DNA from: Candidatus Woesearchaeota archaeon
Lineage (GTDB): Archaea; Nanobdellota; Nanobdellia; Pacearchaeales; GW2011-AR1
DNA length: 25,222 nucleotides
Direction: 5' to 3'
Assembly (NCBI GenBank): GCA_964395155.1
Contig: CAYNAC010000001.1
Coordinates: 1 to 25,222, forward strand
The translations under genes were made by a program, and so were the position numbers. Within the stretch, counting starts at the first letter, position 1. Each line of letters opens with the position of its first letter. Of the stretch, positions 15,534 through 23,941 are shown piece by piece. Under the pieces are notes generated by a model. The model was not told the origin of the DNA. It saw only the letters and a list, made by a program, of their open reading frames with translations, and did no database searches.

Positions 15534-16832
15534 TTAAACAGGCTTCATCGCACCCCATTTATCTAAAGCTTGTCTAAGTTCAATATTGTATTTTGCATGT
15601 TCCTGTAATGTTTCTCCCTCGTGAACTGCATCTATCGCTTGTCTTGCTGCCATTGCTCCTGCACGAGTTCCTTTTGGATGTCCATGAATTCCTCCTGAAA
15701 CAAGAATAACACATTCGTCTCCAAATAGTTTAAGCAAATCTGGGATTAGTCCGGGATGAACTCCTCCTGATGAAACAGGGAATGCTTGTTTTAACCCGTG
15801 CCAATCTTGTAAAAATCTTAAATTTTTTATTTCACTAACTTTTTTCTCTCTGAGAGTATCACTAACATTTTTTACTTCTTGTGCCGTTCCTACAAGTTTT
15901 CCTACTGCAGTTCCAGAATGTATTTGATCCACTCCTATCATCCTCATTAATTTTGCTAGCATGTACATTGACATTCCATGTTTTGGATTTTTGTCAAACA
16001 TTGCATGCATTGCTCTGTGCGCATGAATTGCCATACCATAATCTCCTAATGTTTTACGAAGAGTTTGAACTGAAGAATATCCTGTAACTACAACGTCTAT
16101 CATCGCATGTTTAAATCCATAATTGTGTAATAATTTGGCTCTTCTTTTCATTTCATCGGTTTCGGCAGTAATGTTAATGTATGCGTCCTTGGTATCTCCT
16201 GTTGCTTTTTCTGCTTTATCTCTAAACTTTGCAAGTAATTTTACTCTTTTATCAAAATTATTAAATGAAGTAGAAGTTAAATTTTCGTCGTCTTTTACAA
16301 AATCAAAACCTCCCATCCAAGTCTCATATCCGATTTCTGCGTGTTCAACATCTGAAAAACCTATCTTGGGCTTAGGAACTGCTCCGAGCATAGGCCTGTT
16401 GTAAACATTCATCATTTTTCTTATTCCATTAATTCCATGTCTTGGTCCTGAAAAACTTTTTAGATATTTTTTAGGAAATTTTATATCTAATAGTCTTAAA
16501 TTTTCAAGTGCTTTCATCCCAAAAATATTTCCGCCTATGCCACTTAATAATTGAGGACAATTTCCTTCTTCCCATAAATCATAAGGATATGAAACTTTCA
16601 AAATATTTCCTTCGCGATGATATGCATGAGCTTTTAACTTGTTCATTCGTGGCGGCATTTTAAACAAAGTTGTCCATGTTCCAGTAGAGCTTTCTGAAGC
16701 AATTCTTCCCATTGCTTCATTTACTGAAACTCCTTTAGATGGTTCAAAATAAAATAAAGCAATTAATTCATCTTGGGAGGGTTTGTAAGAGGAATCTACA
16801 AAATCTAAATACCACTCAACTTTTTTTTCCAT
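15534..16832 (-). CDS. rbcL: RuBisCO large subunit, archaeal form III (III-b-like)
   Basis: All active-site motifs present: ESSTGTW, GNIFGMK, PKPKIG, DFVKDDENL (carbamylated Lys), HAHRAMH, HSGT-VGKL, PVSSGG, GGIHGHP. The C-terminus KWGAMKPV resembles Thermococcales form III. Confidence 0.96.
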   Translation of the reverse strand: MEKKVEWYLDFVDSSYKPSQDELIALFYFEPSKGVSVNEAMGRIASESSTGTWTTLFKMPPRMNKLKAHAYHREGNILKVSYPYDLWEEGNCPQLLSGIGGNIFGMKALENLRLLDIKFPKKYLKSFSGPRHGINGIRKMMNVYNRPMLGAVPKPKIGFSDVEHAEIGYETWMGGFDFVKDDENLTSTSFNNFDKRVKLLAKFRDKAEKATGDTKDAYINITAETDEMKRRAKLLHNYGFKHAMIDVVVTGYSSVQTLRKTLGDYGMAIHAHRAMHAMFDKNPKHGMSMYMLAKLMRMIGVDQIHSGTAVGKLVGTAQEVKNVSDTLREKKVSEIKNLRFLQDWHGLKQAFPVSSGGVHPGLIPDLLKLFGDECVILVSGGIHGHPKGTRAGAMAARQAIDAVHEGETLQEHAKYNIELRQALDKWGAMKPV

Positions 16833-16893: not shown

Positions 16894-19800
16894 TTAGTTG
16901 TTTAAATCAATTGGAATGTATTGTCTATCAGCTACTTGGTTTGCGCGCCTTATTGCTATTTGATTTCTTATGGACTTTATGACTAAAAATATTCCTATAG
17001 ATAGAAGAATTACTATTCCTGTCCATGAAACTGTTCTTAAATTATTGTCTGATATTGCAAGTCCAGATATTCCAGCTGAAGATAATTTTATTTTTTGTTC
17101 ATATTTGCTACTTTCTGTTCCGTCTGTTGCCTCAATTAATAAAGTATAGTCTCCTACCGAATTTTTTGGTAGTTCAAATTCAAAAGTTTTTACCACTTTT
17201 TCTTTTGGAGACAAGTTAATATCTTTAACCTCATCTTCTAATATGGTGGTTTGTTTTGAACTTATCATTTTATAATCAAAAGAAATTATCTTATTCTTAT
17301 CTGCGAAATTTTCTAGTGAATATTCTACTCTTAGTTTTGTACCTATCCTTTCAGAATTTAGAATAATCATTTCGAAATCTCCAGAGATTACTGATAAATC
17401 ATATCTTTTTATTATGGATGTCTCTTTACATTTGACGCTTAGTTCTGTAAAGTAATCTCCATTATCTGCATTTATTGGAGTGTTTACGTTGAAAAAATAA
17501 GCTACTTCTTGCCCGGGGCTTAAAGATTCTATCTGACTCATTGAAAACCAAGAAGAAACACCTCCGTTTGCAGAGATTAGACATCCGTTTAAAAATTTGT
17601 TTCCTGTATTTTTTATAATCCATTCAATTGATTCACTCTTTCCCCTACCTATTTTTAATTTATCTAAATCTCCTCCTGTAATTTCAAATATATCTTTTGC
17701 TACAAAGCTACCTCCGCCACCACTTCCTGTTGATGTTCCTCCTGAACTTCCTCCACTGCTAGAACTTGCAGAAACTACAATCTTTAAGCTCGGAGCATTT
17801 TCTGATTCTGCACCTAGAGCATCCTCGAAACTCATAGATGTTGCCTTACAAACAATTTCAATTTTTCCATAATAAGTATTAATTGGAGGGCTGTCTATTG
17901 TTAGAGTCAAATTTTTTGTTTCATTTATTTCTAGGTTGAAATTATTTAGATTGAAACTTCCAAAACCAGTTGTATCGAAACCATCTATTGAAGGAATGCA
18001 GTTTGACAAAGTGAAATTTCCGGTGTTTTTAACTCCCCAAATAAATTCTTTTACTTCATCATTTTTCATAGAATGGACAACATTGCAAATTCCTCCAGAA
18101 CATAAATTCAAAGATGGGATATCTATTGCATCTACATCTCCGCTAGGAGGATCTATACCTATAGTTAAAGGTACTATATACTTCTTACCATCTAAATTTC
18201 TAGTAATTGTTATATTTCCTAAGTAAACAACTCCCTCTATAGTATTTAATGAAGTTTTTATTATGATTTGATTTTTAAATAAATTAGTGTCGTTATAAAC
18301 AGATTTGTTTAAAACCGAGCTATTACTGGAGAAAGTCAAGTTGAAGAACGTTGAATTTAAAGAATAATTAAATGTAAAATTATAATCTTCTAATGAGTTG
18401 TGATACATAGTTAGATTCCATATTAGAGTTTGGTTTTTTGGATCTGGAGTTATTATGTATTCGGAAGGAAAAAATGATAAATCTGCTAAAACTCTAAAAC
18501 TTCCATTTTGATTGGTTTGATTAATTCCATCTGAAGCTATTACACTCCAATTCCAATAACCATATTCATCGATAGTGTAGTTTGTAGAATTCCAAATGCT
18601 ATACCCTCCAAATGAATACTCACTACCTAATAAATTGTCGATAACTCTTGTTCCGTTTGGATTGATTAATGTGAAACTAACTTGAATTGAGTCGTTATCT
18701 GCGTCAGATACATTTGCTTTTATAAAGAAATTTTCTCCGAATAATGGAGTAGAATTTGTATTGTTTATAATTAACAAAACACTATTGATTATTGGAGGAG
18801 AATTACTTGAGTTAGATGTCAAGTTCAAAAATAAGTTTCTTGATAAGTTACTATAATTTTGATTTCCGATTATGTCGAAAGTGTAATTGTAGTATCCTAC
18901 TCCTAGAGTGATGTTTAATCCGTTTTGATTTGTTACATCGACTCCATTTCTGTAGATAGTTAGATTTCCTGCGTTTGTTGAAGCTGTTGCATTGACTTGT
19001 TGAGGATATTGTATTGTTAGATTATTTGTTAAGCCGTTCAAATAATAGTTAAGGTTAGGGATTTGTTTATTTATAGTGTAATATCTCGGAGAAGAGTTGT
19101 TGAAGTTATTACTAGTTCCATTGCCGTATGCCCACCAGTAGTATCTATAAGTTCCAACAGCTAGGTTTGAAATTGAGAAGTTAAATATATTTGAAGTGGA
19201 ATTGTGAATTGTGTAATTTGTCCCATTAAATTCTATTCCTGCAGTTCCATTTGTAGAAATTATGGTTGCATTAAACCTGTAAACTGCTCCTTGCGAGTAA
19301 TTTGTTCCGTTTAAAGGATTTTCTAAAAAGTTTGAGAATGAAGGATGTTCGTTATCTATGATTTGATAAATCAACGTAAAATTAGTATCGTTGTAAGCAT
19401 AGTTACTTGAATTATCGAATGCTATATAGTTCCAATAGAATGTTCCTGAATATGGGAGAACTAAAGATAGATTGCTCAAGTTTGTTAAACCTGAAACTAA
19501 AGAAAAATTAGACAAGACTAAGTTCCCGCTAGAATTCCACATGTGTAACGTTGTATTTTTTAGTTGAATATTATCTGTTAAATTGGCAAGAAAATAATTT
19601 GTATTATTTGTTGTAGTTGTCCCGTTAAATGGAAATATTAACTTAACTCTCGGCGGAAAGGTATCTGGTTCAGATATAACTTCACCATTAATTGTAACGT
19701 TGTCTATTCTGCAGTATTCTGAAACTGCTCCTGCAGTACATTCGAATCTTATTTTAAAATTAGGATTGTTTGATGCGGTTGAAGGTAGAGAAAATATTGT

Positions 19801-20331
19801 GAAATTATAAGATGCGTCATTGGCTGCAGAAGAACCTGTAAAATCTAAAACTGTCCAACCTGTGCCGTTGAACCACATCGATTGAAACTCATCCGCTGAA
19901 TCTAGACCTATTAATTTCTTATAATAACTAAAATTTATATTTTGATAACCTGATGTACTTATGTTTATCTCCATAATACTTGCTGGTTCTGATGTGCTTT
20001 GTGGTTGAGATTGTGCGTGGAAAATTTGTTCAAATGGATCTATATTAGTTACGATCCAATCATTAGCTCCGGAAGCACTTGTTAAATTCCAAGAAACTAA
20101 ACTTCCAGATTCAAATCCGTCTGAAAAAATAACTGACGCATTTACAGATTGAACTAAACTAATTATAAAAAAAATTGAGAAAAATAAACTTAATAGATTT
20201 TTTCCATTTAGTATTTCTTTCATAAATATTTCAATTCTCTTAGATAAAACTATTGCTCTTGCCTTGCAGTACTTCTTAAAATCATTATAAGTCTTAGCCT
20301 CTATCGTTAATGTTACCTTTTTTTTATCCAT
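16894..20331 (-). CDS. 1145-aa surface glycoprotein with N-terminal ribbon-helix-helix domain, signal peptide, jelly-roll-like domain, Ig-like stalk and C-terminal TM anchor
   Basis: aa1-41 RHH pattern (KKVTLTI strand; EAKTYNDFKKYCKAR helix; LSKRIEIFMKEIL helix); aa42-65 signal peptide ending VNA; dense N-x-S/T sequons; Ser/Gly linker; TM VSWTGIVILLSIGIFLVI. Confidence 0.8.
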   Translation of the reverse strand: MDKKKVTLTIEAKTYNDFKKYCKARAIVLSKRIEIFMKEILNGKNLLSLFFSIFFIISLVQSVNASVIFSDGFESGSLVSWNLTSASGANDWIVTNIDPFEQIFHAQSQPQSTSEPASIMEINISTSGYQNINFSYYKKLIGLDSADEFQSMWFNGTGWTVLDFTGSSAANDASYNFTIFSLPSTASNNPNFKIRFECTAGAVSEYCRIDNVTINGEVISEPDTFPPRVKLIFPFNGTTTTNNTNYFLANLTDNIQLKNTTLHMWNSSGNLVLSNFSLVSGLTNLSNLSLVLPYSGTFYWNYIAFDNSSNYAYNDTNFTLIYQIIDNEHPSFSNFLENPLNGTNYSQGAVYRFNATIISTNGTAGIEFNGTNYTIHNSTSNIFNFSISNLAVGTYRYYWWAYGNGTSNNFNNSSPRYYTINKQIPNLNYYLNGLTNNLTIQYPQQVNATASTNAGNLTIYRNGVDVTNQNGLNITLGVGYYNYTFDIIGNQNYSNLSRNLFLNLTSNSSNSPPIINSVLLIINNTNSTPLFGENFFIKANVSDADNDSIQVSFTLINPNGTRVIDNLLGSEYSFGGYSIWNSTNYTIDEYGYWNWSVIASDGINQTNQNGSFRVLADLSFFPSEYIITPDPKNQTLIWNLTMYHNSLEDYNFTFNYSLNSTFFNLTFSSNSSVLNKSVYNDTNLFKNQIIIKTSLNTIEGVVYLGNITITRNLDGKKYIVPLTIGIDPPSGDVDAIDIPSLNLCSGGICNVVHSMKNDEVKEFIWGVKNTGNFTLSNCIPSIDGFDTTGFGSFNLNNFNLEINETKNLTLTIDSPPINTYYGKIEIVCKATSMSFEDALGAESENAPSLKIVVSASSSSGGSSGGTSTGSGGGGSFVAKDIFEITGGDLDKLKIGRGKSESIEWIIKNTGNKFLNGCLISANGGVSSWFSMSQIESLSPGQEVAYFFNVNTPINADNGDYFTELSVKCKETSIIKRYDLSVISGDFEMIILNSERIGTKLRVEYSLENFADKNKIISFDYKMISSKQTTILEDEVKDINLSPKEKVVKTFEFELPKNSVGDYTLLIEATDGTESSKYEQKIKLSSAGISGLAISDNNLRTVSWTGIVILLSIGIFLVIKSIRNQIAIRRANQVADRQYIPIDLNN

Positions 20332-20566
20332 TCAATCAATAGATTTTTATTTATTATAAAGCTTTCTTTTTATGTAAAAAGCTGTATAAATAAATAAAAA
20401 GCTGTATTTAAGAATGAAAGATTAAATAATTTGAGAACAAAACAATAATCATTGACCTGTCAAATTAACGTTGTCTATTCTGCAGTATTCTGAAACTGCT
20501 CCTGCAGTACATTCGAATCTTATTTTAAAATTAGGATTGTTTGATGCAGTTGAAGGTAGAGAAAAT
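19695..20566 (-). repeat. 101-bp direct repeat, 1 mismatch (19695-19795 vs 20466-20566), shared by two adjacent genes
   Basis: Encodes FSLPSTASNNPNFKIRFECTAGAVSEYCRIDNV in both genes; offset 771 bp; the single difference (19777 vs 20548) is synonymous. Confidence 0.95.
20353..20407 (-). promoter_or_regulatory. Promoter of the RHH-surface gene: TATA (20353-20360) plus tandem 13-bp direct repeats TAAAAAGCTGTAT (20375-20387, 20395-20407); candidate RHH operator
   Basis: The repeats are exact with a 20-bp period; a third partial copy (AAAGCT, 20358-20363) is in the same phase and overlaps TATA/BRE; TATA is 21 nt from ATG 20331. Confidence 0.65.
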
Positions 20567-21948
20567 TGTTTGTACTGATAACTTACATCATTGGCTGAAC
20601 TAGATCCAGTTTGTTCAACTATGTTCCAACTAGTTCCGTCAAACCATTTAACTTTAAATTCATCTGCTGAATCTAGACCTATTAACTTCCTATAATAACT
20701 AAATAAGACAGTATTAAATCCAGTTGTACTTATTGTCTTCTCGAGTATGCTTGCTGGTTCTGATGTTGAACGAGGCTGTGATTGAGCATGTTTTGAACCT
20801 TGGAACGGATCTGTAGCAGAGTTTTCCCAATTTAATCCTCCGGAAACGGAAGAAGTAGTCCAACTATTTAGATTACCAGATTCAAAATTATCGTAAAATA
20901 TTTGTTGCGGACCGCTTGGATTAGTTTCATTATCATCCAGATAATTAGTACAACCCAGATCATTCTGATCTATTAAGTTATCTCCGTCGTTATCTATTCC
21001 ATCACTACATTGAGTAAGACCATCATTAATTTCTGAATTGTCTTCACTGGATGAGCAACCGAAATCGTTTGGAAAGTCTATTGAATTATCTCCGTCGTTA
21101 TCTATTCCATCGCTACATTGAGTAATACTATATCCTGGAGGCATAGATATTGGTCTTTTCATGATCCAGTCTACTGCAGTCCATAAAAATGGCCAATCAC
21201 TTCCATCAGGTCCGTCACTTAATTCTTCGGCGAAATTATGAGGTCCGTCTCTTGAACTATCTTCTTCAATTTCTGGATGAGGTCCAACAAGTAAAATCCT
21301 TCCTTGTCCGTAATTAAAACCAATTATCCCTGGTTTTCCATTTACATGAGAATTTGAAGGAACTATCCAAGAAGCAAATGTTTGCATTTCTTGTCCTGAG
21401 TGTGGAACAAAATATGGTTCTCCATAATATAAAACATCTTTCTGTAATGGACTATAAATGTTTGCAGGATGATCTTTGTTAATGTCCATCGTAGTCATTA
21501 CGTAGTTTGGCCAAGGAGCAATTTCAGGAATTGGACCTATACAATCTCCGTTAAACATATCTGAAGGATAGTCGTAACTTCTTCCCTCCCAGATAGTTAT
21601 GTCGCAAGCATAAAATGCTCCAGCACTCATTCCAATATAATGTCCTCCTGAACTAATTAAGTCTCTAATATTTTGATCCCCGCTAGGTTTTATATCTCTA
21701 TTATAATCTCCTGCCCAACCTCCAGGCATAAATATTCCTTTATAATTTAATCTTAAATCCTCTGTGTTTATAATATTTTTATCTACCTCTCTCCAAGTTA
21801 GCCCTTTCCAGTCTAAGAAATTTTCAAAAGCAACAATACTAGGATTCCAAGTTCCACTACCTGTATAAATTGCAAAATCATATTGTTGGGCATAAACTCC
21901 TCCAAAAAGAATTACTGAAAAAAGTAACAATATAAAAAATCTTTTCAT
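20449..21948 (-). CDS. Secreted BPL_N-like class I glutamine-amidotransferase-fold protein, two Ca-binding Cys/Asp repeats, C-terminal jelly-roll-like domain
   Basis: Signal peptide MKRFFILLLFSVILFGGVYA; AIYTGSG, FMPGG, GGHYIGMSAGAFYA and GPHPE motifs; CSDGIDNDGD x2. Confidence 0.75.
   Translation of the reverse strand: MKRFFILLLFSVILFGGVYAQQYDFAIYTGSGTWNPSIVAFENFLDWKGLTWREVDKNIINTEDLRLNYKGIFMPGGWAGDYNRDIKPSGDQNIRDLISSGGHYIGMSAGAFYACDITIWEGRSYDYPSDMFNGDCIGPIPEIAPWPNYVMTTMDINKDHPANIYSPLQKDVLYYGEPYFVPHSGQEMQTFASWIVPSNSHVNGKPGIIGFNYGQGRILLVGPHPEIEEDSSRDGPHNFAEELSDGPDGSDWPFLWTAVDWIMKRPISMPPGYSITQCSDGIDNDGDNSIDFPNDFGCSSSEDNSEINDGLTQCSDGIDNDGDNLIDQNDLGCTNYLDDNETNPSGPQQIFYDNFESGNLNSWTTSSVSGGLNWENSATDPFQGSKHAQSQPRSTSEPASILEKTISTTGFNTVLFSYYRKLIGLDSADEFKVKWFDGTSWNIVEQTGSSSANDVSYQYKQFSLPSTASNNPNFKIRFECTAGAVSEYCRIDNVNLTGQ
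20978..21125 (-). repeat. 40-bp direct repeat, 1 mismatch (20978-21017 vs 21086-21125), encoding TQCSDGIDNDGDN
   Basis: Offset 108 bp (36 aa). Confidence 0.9.
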
Positions 21949-22060: not shown

Positions 22061-23941
22061 ATGCAAAAAAAGAGTTTAGGAGTATTATTGTTAACTTTGT
22101 TGTTGATTTCATTTGTTTTAGCTCAAAATTCTTCAAGCAATAATTCTTCGAATAATCAAGGAGCTAATTCTCCATCTTCATCTAATGCTGATGTGATTTC
22201 AAAAGCATATCAGTGCTTACAAAATCAAATCGATGCTAAAGATCAAAACTCTATTTCTTTTCAAGAAGCAACTTTTGGGATTTTGGCAATAGGCTCAAAT
22301 TCAAAATTAGTTAAAGTTTTAGAAGATAAAATGAAAACTGAAAACCACTGGCAGGAATCTGCAAATCCTCTAAAAGATACTGCTCAAGGAATGCTAGCCT
22401 ATAATAGAATAAATAAAAATACAGATAAGATAAAAAACTGGATATTATCTAAAAAGCAAGTCGCAACAGACTTGACATGGTATCTGGAGATAGATATAGA
22501 TAATCATCGTAGCGCTTCATGTACTTTATCTTATGGGGGAGAACAGCAACGTCAAATAACTGTTAATGATGATATGACTCTCTCTGGAAATCCAGGTTCT
22601 TGCCTTTCTGTATCTCAAGGAGGTTTTTGGTTAAAAGTAAATAATAATAACAATTGTTTAGATAATAATTATACTATTTCTTGTGACCAGGACTTTACAA
22701 CCTCTACGCTGTATCAGAGAACAAGTTCATCAACAATTTTTGTTTCATCCGTAGCCCACTCCAGTTCTGCACTTGGAAACACTTTAGAAACTATAAAGTC
22801 TAAATGTTTATCATCTTCGTCTAACTCTTGCGATTATGAAGGAACATTATGGGCTGCAATTGTTTTAGATAAGACTGGAAATAAAGTTGATGAATATATC
22901 CCTTACTTACTTGCGCTTTCAGAATCAAATAAAAGGTTTTTACCAAGTAGCTTTATTTATTTGTTGACTGATGGTCAAGACCAATACTCCGAATTAATCC
23001 AATTACAACAACAAAATAAATTCTGGCAAGCTCCTAACACTTTGTACAATAGATATTATGACTCTTCCTTAGCAATGTTATCTTTACAAGGATCTAATTC
23101 TTTAGAAGTTACAAACTCTAAAAGCTATTTTGAGAGCATAACTACTCCTGAAGGATGTTGGAATAATAACAATATTAGAGATACAGGTTTTCTTCTTTAT
23201 GCTGGCTGGCCTAAATTTGTTTCTGGAGGTTCTGGTGGTGGCGGAGGAGGTTCTGCACAAAAATGTGAGTCTGCAGGTAATACTTGTATGTCTTTATTTG
23301 CCTGTAGCGAACTTAACGGAAATCCACTAGAACAATTTAGATGTGATGGGACGAAGGTTTGCTGTTCTGAATCTCCTAAGCTTGAATCTTGTTCTGCTCT
23401 TAGTGGAAGTATTTGCTCTTTAGCTGAATCTTGTTCTGGAAAAGTTATTGATTCAACAGATGGTTCTTGTTGTCTTGGAACTTGCGAGATAATCTCTGGA
23501 TCCGACCAGTGTACTCAGGCAGGGGGAAGTTGTTATGATTCTTGCAATGATGATGAACAAACTCTTTCAGAATCTTGTACTAATACTGCTCAAGTCTGTT
23601 GTAAGAAGATATCAGATTCTTCTGGAGGAAGTAATGTAGGATTATGGATAACTATTTTATTAATTTTGATAGTGTTAATTGTTGTAGCAATTTTAATGCG
23701 TAATAAAATAAAGATGTTAATATTTAAGTCAAAGAATAAACCTGGACCTACGAATTCTCCTAGAGGGCCTATTCCTCCAGGTTCTAGACCTCCATTTCCT
23801 CCATTCAGAGGACCAGTTCCATACCCAAGAGCACAACCTAGGATGGTAGGTCAACAAACTCAAAGTCCAATGAGACAGACCTCTACTAGAGATAAGGAAA
23901 TGGAAGAAACAATGGCTAAGCTCAAAGAAATGAGTAGATAA
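22061..23941 (+). CDS. Type I membrane surface protein: helical (prenyltransferase/terpene-cyclase-like toroid) domain, three Cys-rich modules, TM, Pro-rich cytoplasmic tail
   Basis: Signal peptide; repeated helix pairs (LKDTAQGMLAY, YEGTLWAAIVL, YYDSSLAMLSL, IRDTGFLLYA); CC-containing repeats; TM GLWITILLILIVLIVVAILM; PGPTNSPRGPIPPGSRPPFPPF. The toroid fold is inferred. Confidence 0.7.
   Translation: MQKKSLGVLLLTLLLISFVLAQNSSSNNSSNNQGANSPSSSNADVISKAYQCLQNQIDAKDQNSISFQEATFGILAIGSNSKLVKVLEDKMKTENHWQESANPLKDTAQGMLAYNRINKNTDKIKNWILSKKQVATDLTWYLEIDIDNHRSASCTLSYGGEQQRQITVNDDMTLSGNPGSCLSVSQGGFWLKVNNNNNCLDNNYTISCDQDFTTSTLYQRTSSSTIFVSSVAHSSSALGNTLETIKSKCLSSSSNSCDYEGTLWAAIVLDKTGNKVDEYIPYLLALSESNKRFLPSSFIYLLTDGQDQYSELIQLQQQNKFWQAPNTLYNRYYDSSLAMLSLQGSNSLEVTNSKSYFESITTPEGCWNNNNIRDTGFLLYAGWPKFVSGGSGGGGGGSAQKCESAGNTCMSLFACSELNGNPLEQFRCDGTKVCCSESPKLESCSALSGSICSLAESCSGKVIDSTDGSCCLGTCEIISGSDQCTQAGGSCYDSCNDDEQTLSESCTNTAQVCCKKISDSSGGSNVGLWITILLILIVLIVVAILMRNKIKMLIFKSKNKPGPTNSPRGPIPPGSRPPFPPFRGPVPYPRAQPRMVGQQTQSPMRQTSTRDKEMEETMAKLKEMSR

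Follow-up and report, generated by a model that had tools for sequence, protein, structure and literature searches.

Interlocus gene conversion between adjacent paralogous genes is described in Trypanosoma brucei, where part of the published account reports transfer of the GAF-A domain between TbrPDEB1 and TbrPDEB2 (PMC2689650). In Plasmodium falciparum, an extract of a second report describes conversion between paralogous merozoite surface antigen genes (PMC10919680). In the polyploid archaeon Haloferax volcanii, gene conversion equalises genome copies, as stated in an extract of a third (PMC11276520). The locus described here lies on a 25,222-nucleotide (nt) stretch of DNA from Candidatus Woesearchaeota archaeon (assembly GCA_964395155.1, contig CAYNAC010000001.1, positions 1 to 25,222), which is referred to as the window. 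It consists of a 101-nt direct repeat, or patch, shared by two neighbouring genes that encode a predicted secreted protein of 499 amino acids (aa) and a predicted surface protein of 1145 aa. The near-identity of the two patch copies is probably the result of short-tract interlocus gene conversion between old tandem paralogous modules.

Set against the extracts on T. brucei and P. falciparum, the locus shares adjacent, diverged paralogues, a bounded tract, homogenised synonymous sites, shared polymorphisms, and surface or exported protein products. It differs in its tract of only about 100 nt, in its uncultured DPANN archaeal host, and in the single module shared by otherwise unrelated architectures. 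By analogy, the patch appears to behave like the conversion described for PDEB1/PDEB2 and the P. falciparum surface antigens, and as such it would be ordinary biology. As far as the extract on H. volcanii goes, archaeal homologous recombination performs efficient non-reciprocal transfer, although there it acts on the same locus on different chromosome copies, whereas here it would act on paralogous modules 771 base pairs (bp) apart.

Direct repeats are also known as sites of rearrangement; examples are the skin element, which is excised from sigK in Bacillus subtilis, and the nifD element of Anabaena. The present locus resembles these systems in that direct repeats flank a segment whose loss would restore or create one long reading frame, with a circle as by-product. 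Unlike the locus in the window, the skin and nifD elements have a dedicated recombinase and conserved sites, and both of their forms are demonstrable. In the window, scans of the larger open reading frames revealed no recombinase, relatives do not conserve the repeat, and the deletion form is unseen in contigs assembled with words of 31 nt (k = 31), which are blind to it.

The 101-nt patch and its paired modules

The genes for the 499-aa and 1145-aa proteins lie head to tail with 117 bp between them (Table 1). A module of about 150 aa closes the first protein and opens the exported part of the second. The two modules align without gaps at a constant offset of 771 nt, with 66% aa identity and 71% nt identity, and the patch sits at their end. 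Within the patch, 100 of 101 bases are identical; the sole mismatch (G at 19777, A at 20548) leaves the amino acid unchanged, and the bases match without interruption over at most 82 nt. Module DNA outside the patch is 64% identical between the copies. The offset equals 3 x 257, and both copies are read in the same frame. A near-identical 101-bp direct repeat with one synonymous change, and colinear paralogous modules in the same frame, had both been proposed in a preliminary description made from the sequence alone, and both are borne out. That description placed the identity in the last 101 bp of the module, which is right for the identity but not for its position at the very end, as the patch stops five codons before the stop of the 499-aa gene.

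The excess of identity extends to synonymous sites. Synonymous differences affect 1 of 33 codons inside the patch and 28 of 61 conserved degenerate codons outside it (Fisher p = 5e-6), which amounts to 3% against 46% within the same two genes. When codon columns were shuffled 100,000 times, the longest identical run reached 59 nt at most, compared with the 82 nt observed.

The same pattern bears on the view that no DNA was transferred, according to which an invariant protein motif, written with one preferred codon per amino acid in an AT-rich genome, is enough to produce the identity. The motif FECTAGAVSE[YF]CR[IV]DNV is indeed nearly invariant across the module family, and in two related genomes (L005 and L009) it also shows few synonymous differences between copies. 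However, it carries 6-8 synonymous differences in L001, L007, and L017, and protein constraint alone is therefore insufficient to account for the DNA identity. The contrast between conserved codons inside and outside the tract, the extension of the tract over the less conserved FSLPSTASNNPN part, and the sharing of alleles between copies among strains all speak against codon preference as the cause. Identity without transfer is strongly disfavoured and highly improbable.

An RNA-level function of the patch was considered and rejected. An Rfam search with the tract matched no family, and its RNA folding is ordinary (z = -0.7); there is therefore no sign of nucleotide-level function. JGI metagenomes, scanned with 40 nt from the core of the patch, contained 0 matches.

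The gene pair in relatives, strains, and assemblies

The window is an AT-rich piece of archaeal chromosome with 31% GC. It also encodes ribosomal proteins L31e and S19e, a class II aminoacyl-tRNA synthetase, and a form-III-type RuBisCO. The closest relatives of the two studied proteins come from metagenome-assembled genomes labelled Pacearchaeota, Woesearchaeota, or Nanoarchaeota, all DPANN archaea, and the window sequence itself is found in wastewater and activated-sludge metagenomes. The host is an uncultured DPANN archaeon, Pacearchaeota- or Woesearchaeota-like, from these environments.

The gene pair is present in six related DPANN genomes (L001, L004, L005, L007, L008, and L009), where a gene with a BPL_N domain ends with the module and a later gene starts with it. 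The two genes adjoin in five of these genomes, and two inserted genes separate them in L001. The duplication therefore predates these lineages. Between the copies within one genome, identity is 53-71% at the aa level and 61-74% at the nt level, except in L004, where it falls to 26% and 47%. The longest identical runs between copies in the relatives are 5-41 nt, and the copy offsets modulo 3 are 0, 0, 1, 0, 1, and 2.

Variation among strains was followed in 15 public runs, examined as Logan k = 31 contigs at 2-7x depth, together with contigs from ENA assemblies. Strains across the runs differ from the window by about 1%. At position 19777, the window has G, and A occurs in X6, X7, X8, X10, and the ENA contig L020; at position 20548, the window has A, and G occurs in X10 and a second ENA contig, L021. 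Read with the 1145-aa gene first, the two sites combine as G/A (window, X1, X2, X5), A/A (X7, X8), and A/G (X10). Of 14 strain-variable sites in the modules, six have the base of the paralogue as their variant (19777, 19915, 19919, 20052, 20548, and 20888), where chance would give about 10% (P = 0.001). Alleles common to both paralogues in this way are characteristic of repeated conversion.

The window was assembled from metagenomic samples of low coverage, and repeats of about 100 nt are a classic cause of mis-joins, so a chimeric or collapsed repeat might have made the two copies look identical. Against this, each copy is found in its own context in independent datasets that do not cover the other. 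The copy in the 1145-aa gene is crossed unbroken with its own flanks by k = 31 contigs X11 (19684-19894) and X23 (19411-19759), and the copy in the 499-aa gene by X9 (20126-20645) and X3 (20073-21003). L021, which corresponds to window 23644-20035 at 98.9% identity, also runs unbroken through the 499-aa-gene copy. In X1, the contigs break exactly 30 nt (k-1) into the repeat, and the 82-nt unitig common to both copies reaches a depth of 10.7 against 2.9-4.9 in the flanks, or about double, which indicates two copies. Collapse of the repeat, an objection raised in the preliminary description itself, was checked in this way, and the repeat stands; an assembly artefact has a vanishingly small probability.

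Gene conversion is the favoured reading because the syntenic pair is old, homogenisation is confined to this tract and reaches its synonymous sites, and the copies have polymorphisms in common. Four of the five features of interlocus gene conversion are found at the locus, namely a bounded excess of identity, homogenised synonymous sites, an older duplication, and shared polymorphism. Recent gene conversion between shared modules, one of the two explanations put forward in the preliminary description, is thus well supported by the syntenic pair, the synonymous sites, and the shared alleles.

A plausible course of events starts from the last strands of the module (NFKIRFECTAGAVSEYCRIDNV), which are its most protein-constrained part and would keep the highest DNA identity between the copies. 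That identity would let the recombination machinery pair misaligned copies 771 bp apart, and one copy would then overwrite the other, non-reciprocally, over a short tract. Repeated in the population, such events would renew the identity. The enzymology would presumably be RadA-type homologous recombination. Weak hints suggest that the 499-aa gene may be the donor and the copy in the 1145-aa gene the recipient. A possible benefit is that the enzyme and the surface protein would keep the same ligand specificity. In principle, 771-bp deletions or duplications could arise at the direct repeat as a by-product, and nothing indicates that these are put to use.

Several points weigh against this account. 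Its direction, which phylogenetic incongruence between tract and flanks would reveal, depends on two residues typical of the enzyme copy, Pro (in F-S-L-P) and Arg (in K-I-R-F-E-C), and wider homologues break both. No strain among the runs examined yielded a clearly unconverted tract. All of the read evidence consists of low-depth contigs, as specified above. Finally, conversion alone explains neither the cyclic contig L020 nor the dataset X5, in which the repeat has no entry from the stalk side; both are described below.

If conversion is correct, the locus is a clean, population-supported case of concerted evolution of a shared binding module in DPANN surface genes. For DPANN archaea, which spend their lives on hosts, surface proteins are considered to be what drives this contact. 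That an enzyme and a giant surface protein keep the same module end hints at a common ligand.

The 771-nt deletion and the cyclic contig

A different use of the repeat was envisaged in the preliminary description, in which a crossover at the in-frame copies deletes 771 bp, including the stop codon, promoter, ribbon-helix-helix (RHH) segment, and signal, and thereby toggles the enzyme between a free and a cell-displayed form. The deletion would join the enzyme to the stalk that is anchored in the membrane, and a return would be possible through the reciprocal circle or duplication. The geometry is as described. In silico, the 771-bp deletion yields one open reading frame (ORF) of 1427 aa, exactly as had been predicted, and the reciprocal 771-nt circle yields a 217-aa ORF.

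A protein of this second kind exists in the databases. The closest database relative of the 1145-aa N-terminus is P0121, a protein of 217 aa that is 97% identical and ends in ...IDNVNLTGQ, the tail of the 499-aa protein, followed by a stop. P0121 comprises an RHH segment, signal, module, and 499-aa tail, and it is encoded by L020 (ENA ERZ27258568 k141_2395345), an independently assembled contig of 912 nt. The first and last 141 nt of L020 are identical, so that it forms a closed 771-nt cycle with a 141-nt overlap and corresponds to window 19695-20465 closed on itself. Contigs of 771 + 30 nt also occur at k = 31 in X5 and X6, and in X5 no contig leads into the cycle from the side of the stalk. 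A free-standing protein of the same short architecture in another species (L022) lends the predicted product some further support.

L020 is nevertheless ambiguous between a real circle or duplication and an assembler loop. A repeat of 101 nt collapses in a de Bruijn graph at any k <= 99. If flanks of low depth are trimmed away as tips, the loop that is left would be output as a cycle, and MEGAHIT would take it along its series of k values to k = 141. Under these conditions, the assembler itself would produce a cycle of 771 + k. The 771-bp circle that the preliminary description proposed to look for therefore has a matching contig, which could equally be an assembler product.

The remaining evidence runs against a switch. 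In the 499-aa family, 951 homologues were detected; of the best 120, 116 are 279-565 aa long and the four longest are 655-840 aa. No fused form of about 1400 aa was found among the 951. The two 90%-identity clusters of the window proteins hold only the window proteins, an ENA variant of the 499-aa protein, and P0121, again with no fusion. (Exact look-ups of both window proteins gave no match, and a cluster look-up gave P0121 and P0173.) All six related genomes retain two separate genes, and their varying offsets modulo 3 and lack of long identical runs indicate that neither the repeat nor the frame is conserved. The fused architecture sought in relatives was found neither in the six genomes nor among the 951 homologues.

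Pfam scans of 24 of the larger window ORFs (>=60 aa) revealed no recombinase, integrase, invertase, or transposase. In X1, the flanks and the inter-repeat segment have equal depth (4.4, 4.9, and 4.8) beside the doubled shared unitig, which indicates neither amplification nor loss, and L021, from a related sample, shows the parental order. No deletion or circle junction appears in the 15 runs, whose k = 31 contigs are blind to a crossover inside the 82-nt identical tract. Two of the three features of a programmed excision switch, a dedicated recombinase and sites and frame conserved in relatives, are missing here; for the third, the presence of both forms in the population, L020 is the one positive hint. 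A switch between a free and a displayed enzyme is not supported and is quite unlikely.

A combined form, in which the 771-nt cycle is real in some cells, is very unlikely as well. The unit carrying the promoter, the RHH-signal segment, and the first module would then be excised or duplicated, and repeated gene conversion would preserve the identity of the repeat and with it a working, recombinase-independent toggle. The fusion would be driven by the promoter of the enzyme gene, the reciprocal product would be the 217-aa protein, and an episymbiotic archaeon would gain varied surface display. Were the deletion or circle real, it would offer the cell an uncomplicated means of alternating between secretion and display of an enzyme.

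The two proteins and their neighbourhood

Table 1. Positions of the patch copies, the modules, and the features of the two genes in the window.
Feature	Position	Strand	Remarks
1145-aa surface protein	16894..20331	-	RHH-like start, signal/anchor, beta-sandwich, sequon-rich body, transmembrane helix (predicted)
C-terminal transmembrane helix of the 1145-aa protein	16978-17025	-	
First exported module of the 1145-aa protein, aa 67-216	19684..20133	-	CBM/MAM-like beta-sandwich (predicted), paralogue of 20455-20907
Patch copy in the 1145-aa gene	19695..19795	-	codons ~180-212, FSLPSTASNNPNFKIRFECTAGAVSEYCRIDNV
771-nt unit: one patch copy and all sequence between the copies	19796..20566	-	segment that a crossover would delete, circularise, or duplicate
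Hydrophobic signal/anchor ending VNA|S	20137-20199	-	directly after the RHH-like segment
RHH-like N-terminus, residues 1-44	20200-20331	-	in frame with the signal sequence
Intergenic region	20332..20448	-	TATA-like box and 13-nt direct repeat
499-aa secreted protein	20449..21948	-	signal peptide, BPL_N domain, Asp/Asn-rich repeats, beta-sandwich (predicted)
C-terminal module of the 499-aa protein, aa 348-498	20455..20907	-	beta-sandwich (predicted): CBM22/CBM61/CBM16, MAM, gingipain cleaved-adhesin type
Patch copy, C-terminal end of the 499-aa gene	20466..20566	-	followed by 5 codons (NLTGQ) and stop, 20449-20465
Two Cys-bracketed Asp/Asn-rich repeats of the 499-aa protein	20914-21120	-	between BPL_N domain and beta-sandwich
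BPL_N/class-I glutamine-amidotransferase-like domain	about 21163-21882	-	PF09825; predicted triad Ser108-His224-Glu226
Signal peptide of the 499-aa protein	21889-21948	-	N-terminus

The 499-aa protein matches PF09825 (BPL_N) with an E-value of 8e-14 and a score of 51.7 bits against a cut-off of 24.2. Its AlphaFold model has a mean predicted local distance difference test (pLDDT) score of 87, and Foldseek matches its BPL_N part to HisH (4gud) and to the GH42 trimerisation domain. Among 48 homologues, the nucleophile position 108 is occupied by Ser in 31 and by Cys in 17, while His224 and Glu226 are invariant (triad codons 21625-21627 and 21271-21279). The protein thus combines a score above the gathering cut-off, the fold, and the nucleophile-His-Glu triad of the BPL_N class. 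A fair reading of the model is a secreted hydrolase of class-I glutamine-amidotransferase fold with a predicted Ser-His-Glu triad.

The C-terminal module of the same model reaches pLDDT 94-98, and a Pfam scan of the module gave no match. Foldseek matches it to 8xmz_A (E-value 1e-9, target template modelling score 0.75, probability 1.0), as well as to 4xup, 2xom, 3km5, and the meprin MAM domain. With high confidence, the shared module is predicted to adopt a CBM/MAM-type beta-sandwich fold. It resembles the carbohydrate-binding modules CBM22, CBM61, CBM16, and CBM4, meprin MAM, and the gingipain "cleaved adhesin" domains in this predicted fold and in its presence on both an enzyme and an adhesin-like protein. 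Unlike these domains, it lies outside Pfam, and its sequence identity to the matched structures is 11-21%.

The 499-aa gene contains a further direct repeat of 55 nt (20969-21023 and 21077-21131), with 91% identity and a spacing of 108 nt. It encodes two Cys-bracketed Asp/Asn-rich repeats (CSDGIDNDGDN..D..GC) and is a second instance in this gene of repeated units that are highly identical in DNA.

The 1145-aa protein is predicted to be a giant, membrane-anchored, and heavily glycosylated surface protein, whose body contains 62 N-x-S/T sequons. Its first 44 residues resemble an RHH domain. The segment in the window scores 22 bits on DUF6364, under the cut-off of 27.3. Among 36 homologues of the segment, 33 match DUF6364 (best E-value 6e-7), 18 match RepB-RCR_reg, and a few match RHH_1, RHH_5, RelB, ParG, or CcdA. 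A profile search of the PDB with the segment gave weak matches to SvtR (2kel, E-value 0.06) and ParG (E-value 1.1). The structure model of the first 330 aa has low confidence (pLDDT 57). The domain order sketched in the preliminary description is largely right for both proteins; its separate RHH gene, or cassette, is not, as the RHH-like segment belongs to the 1145-aa ORF itself and is in frame with the signal.

The arrangement of RHH, signal, and module at the N-terminus also occurs in L004 (9626-9830), in L007 (11799-12000), and in at least 10 proteins of 1007-1465 aa. The RHH-headed proteins, among P0174-P0230, are 36-59% identical, and many free-standing RHH homologues of 45-85 aa exist. 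Orthologues in L001, L005, L008, and L009 lack the RHH segment and have a plain signal peptide at the same place. L022, a non-cyclic contig of 902 nt (Logan SRR22388054), encodes a free-standing 215-aa protein with RHH, signal, beta-sandwich, and its own stop; it comes from another species, is 54% identical, and has unrelated flanks. The short RHH-signal-module architecture is natural because this protein exists.

Placed at the N-terminus, ahead of a signal peptide that can probably be cleaved, the RHH segment, of a DNA-binding type, could act as an export-coupled feedback regulator. The literature searched contained nothing specific on an RHH-signal-peptide fusion, or on gene conversion, in DPANN archaea. 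The RHH-like segment fused in frame ahead of the signal of giant surface proteins may hold more lasting interest than the repeat.

A TATA-like box, CTTTATAA, lies at 20354-20361 and begins 30 nt before the RHH ATG. L004 and L007 have the same CTTTA[TA]AA box equally far from the ATG, and in L022 a TATA-like ATATTTAAAA stands at about this distance. This spacing fits a leaderless mRNA that would start at the RHH ATG. The intergenic region also contains a 13-nt direct repeat, ATACAGCTTTTTA, at 20375-20387 and 20395-20407, whose sequence is not conserved in L004 or L007; it could be an operator.

Within the 1145-aa gene, positions 18900-19357 have 2-3x the depth of their neighbours in several runs. 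At 19028, 19207, and 19357, contigs from several runs branch off into sequences that the window lacks, such as GCCTCTTCAGTAACATTAACAAAATAAGTA after 19357. A homologue search with stalk residues 323-620 for the alternative sequence at the 19357 fork returned one distant match only. These observations suggest that the gene shares further near-identical segments with loci or strains elsewhere, as mosaic, recombining surface-protein genes would. In X5 and X24, 19358-19746 (aa 196-325 of the protein) has no contig that is at least 80% alike, with both sides at 4-7x, and these datasets may hold a strain with a different module at this place.

The two genes are flanked on both sides by coding sequence. 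Directly downstream of the 1145-aa gene lies the RuBisCO large-subunit gene (form III-like, 432 aa, 15534-16832, minus strand). Divergent from the 499-aa gene is a 626-aa ORF (22061-23941, plus strand) without a match in a Pfam scan. It has a signal peptide, Cys-rich repeats, a C-terminal transmembrane helix, and a Pro-rich tail, and it is probably another surface protein.

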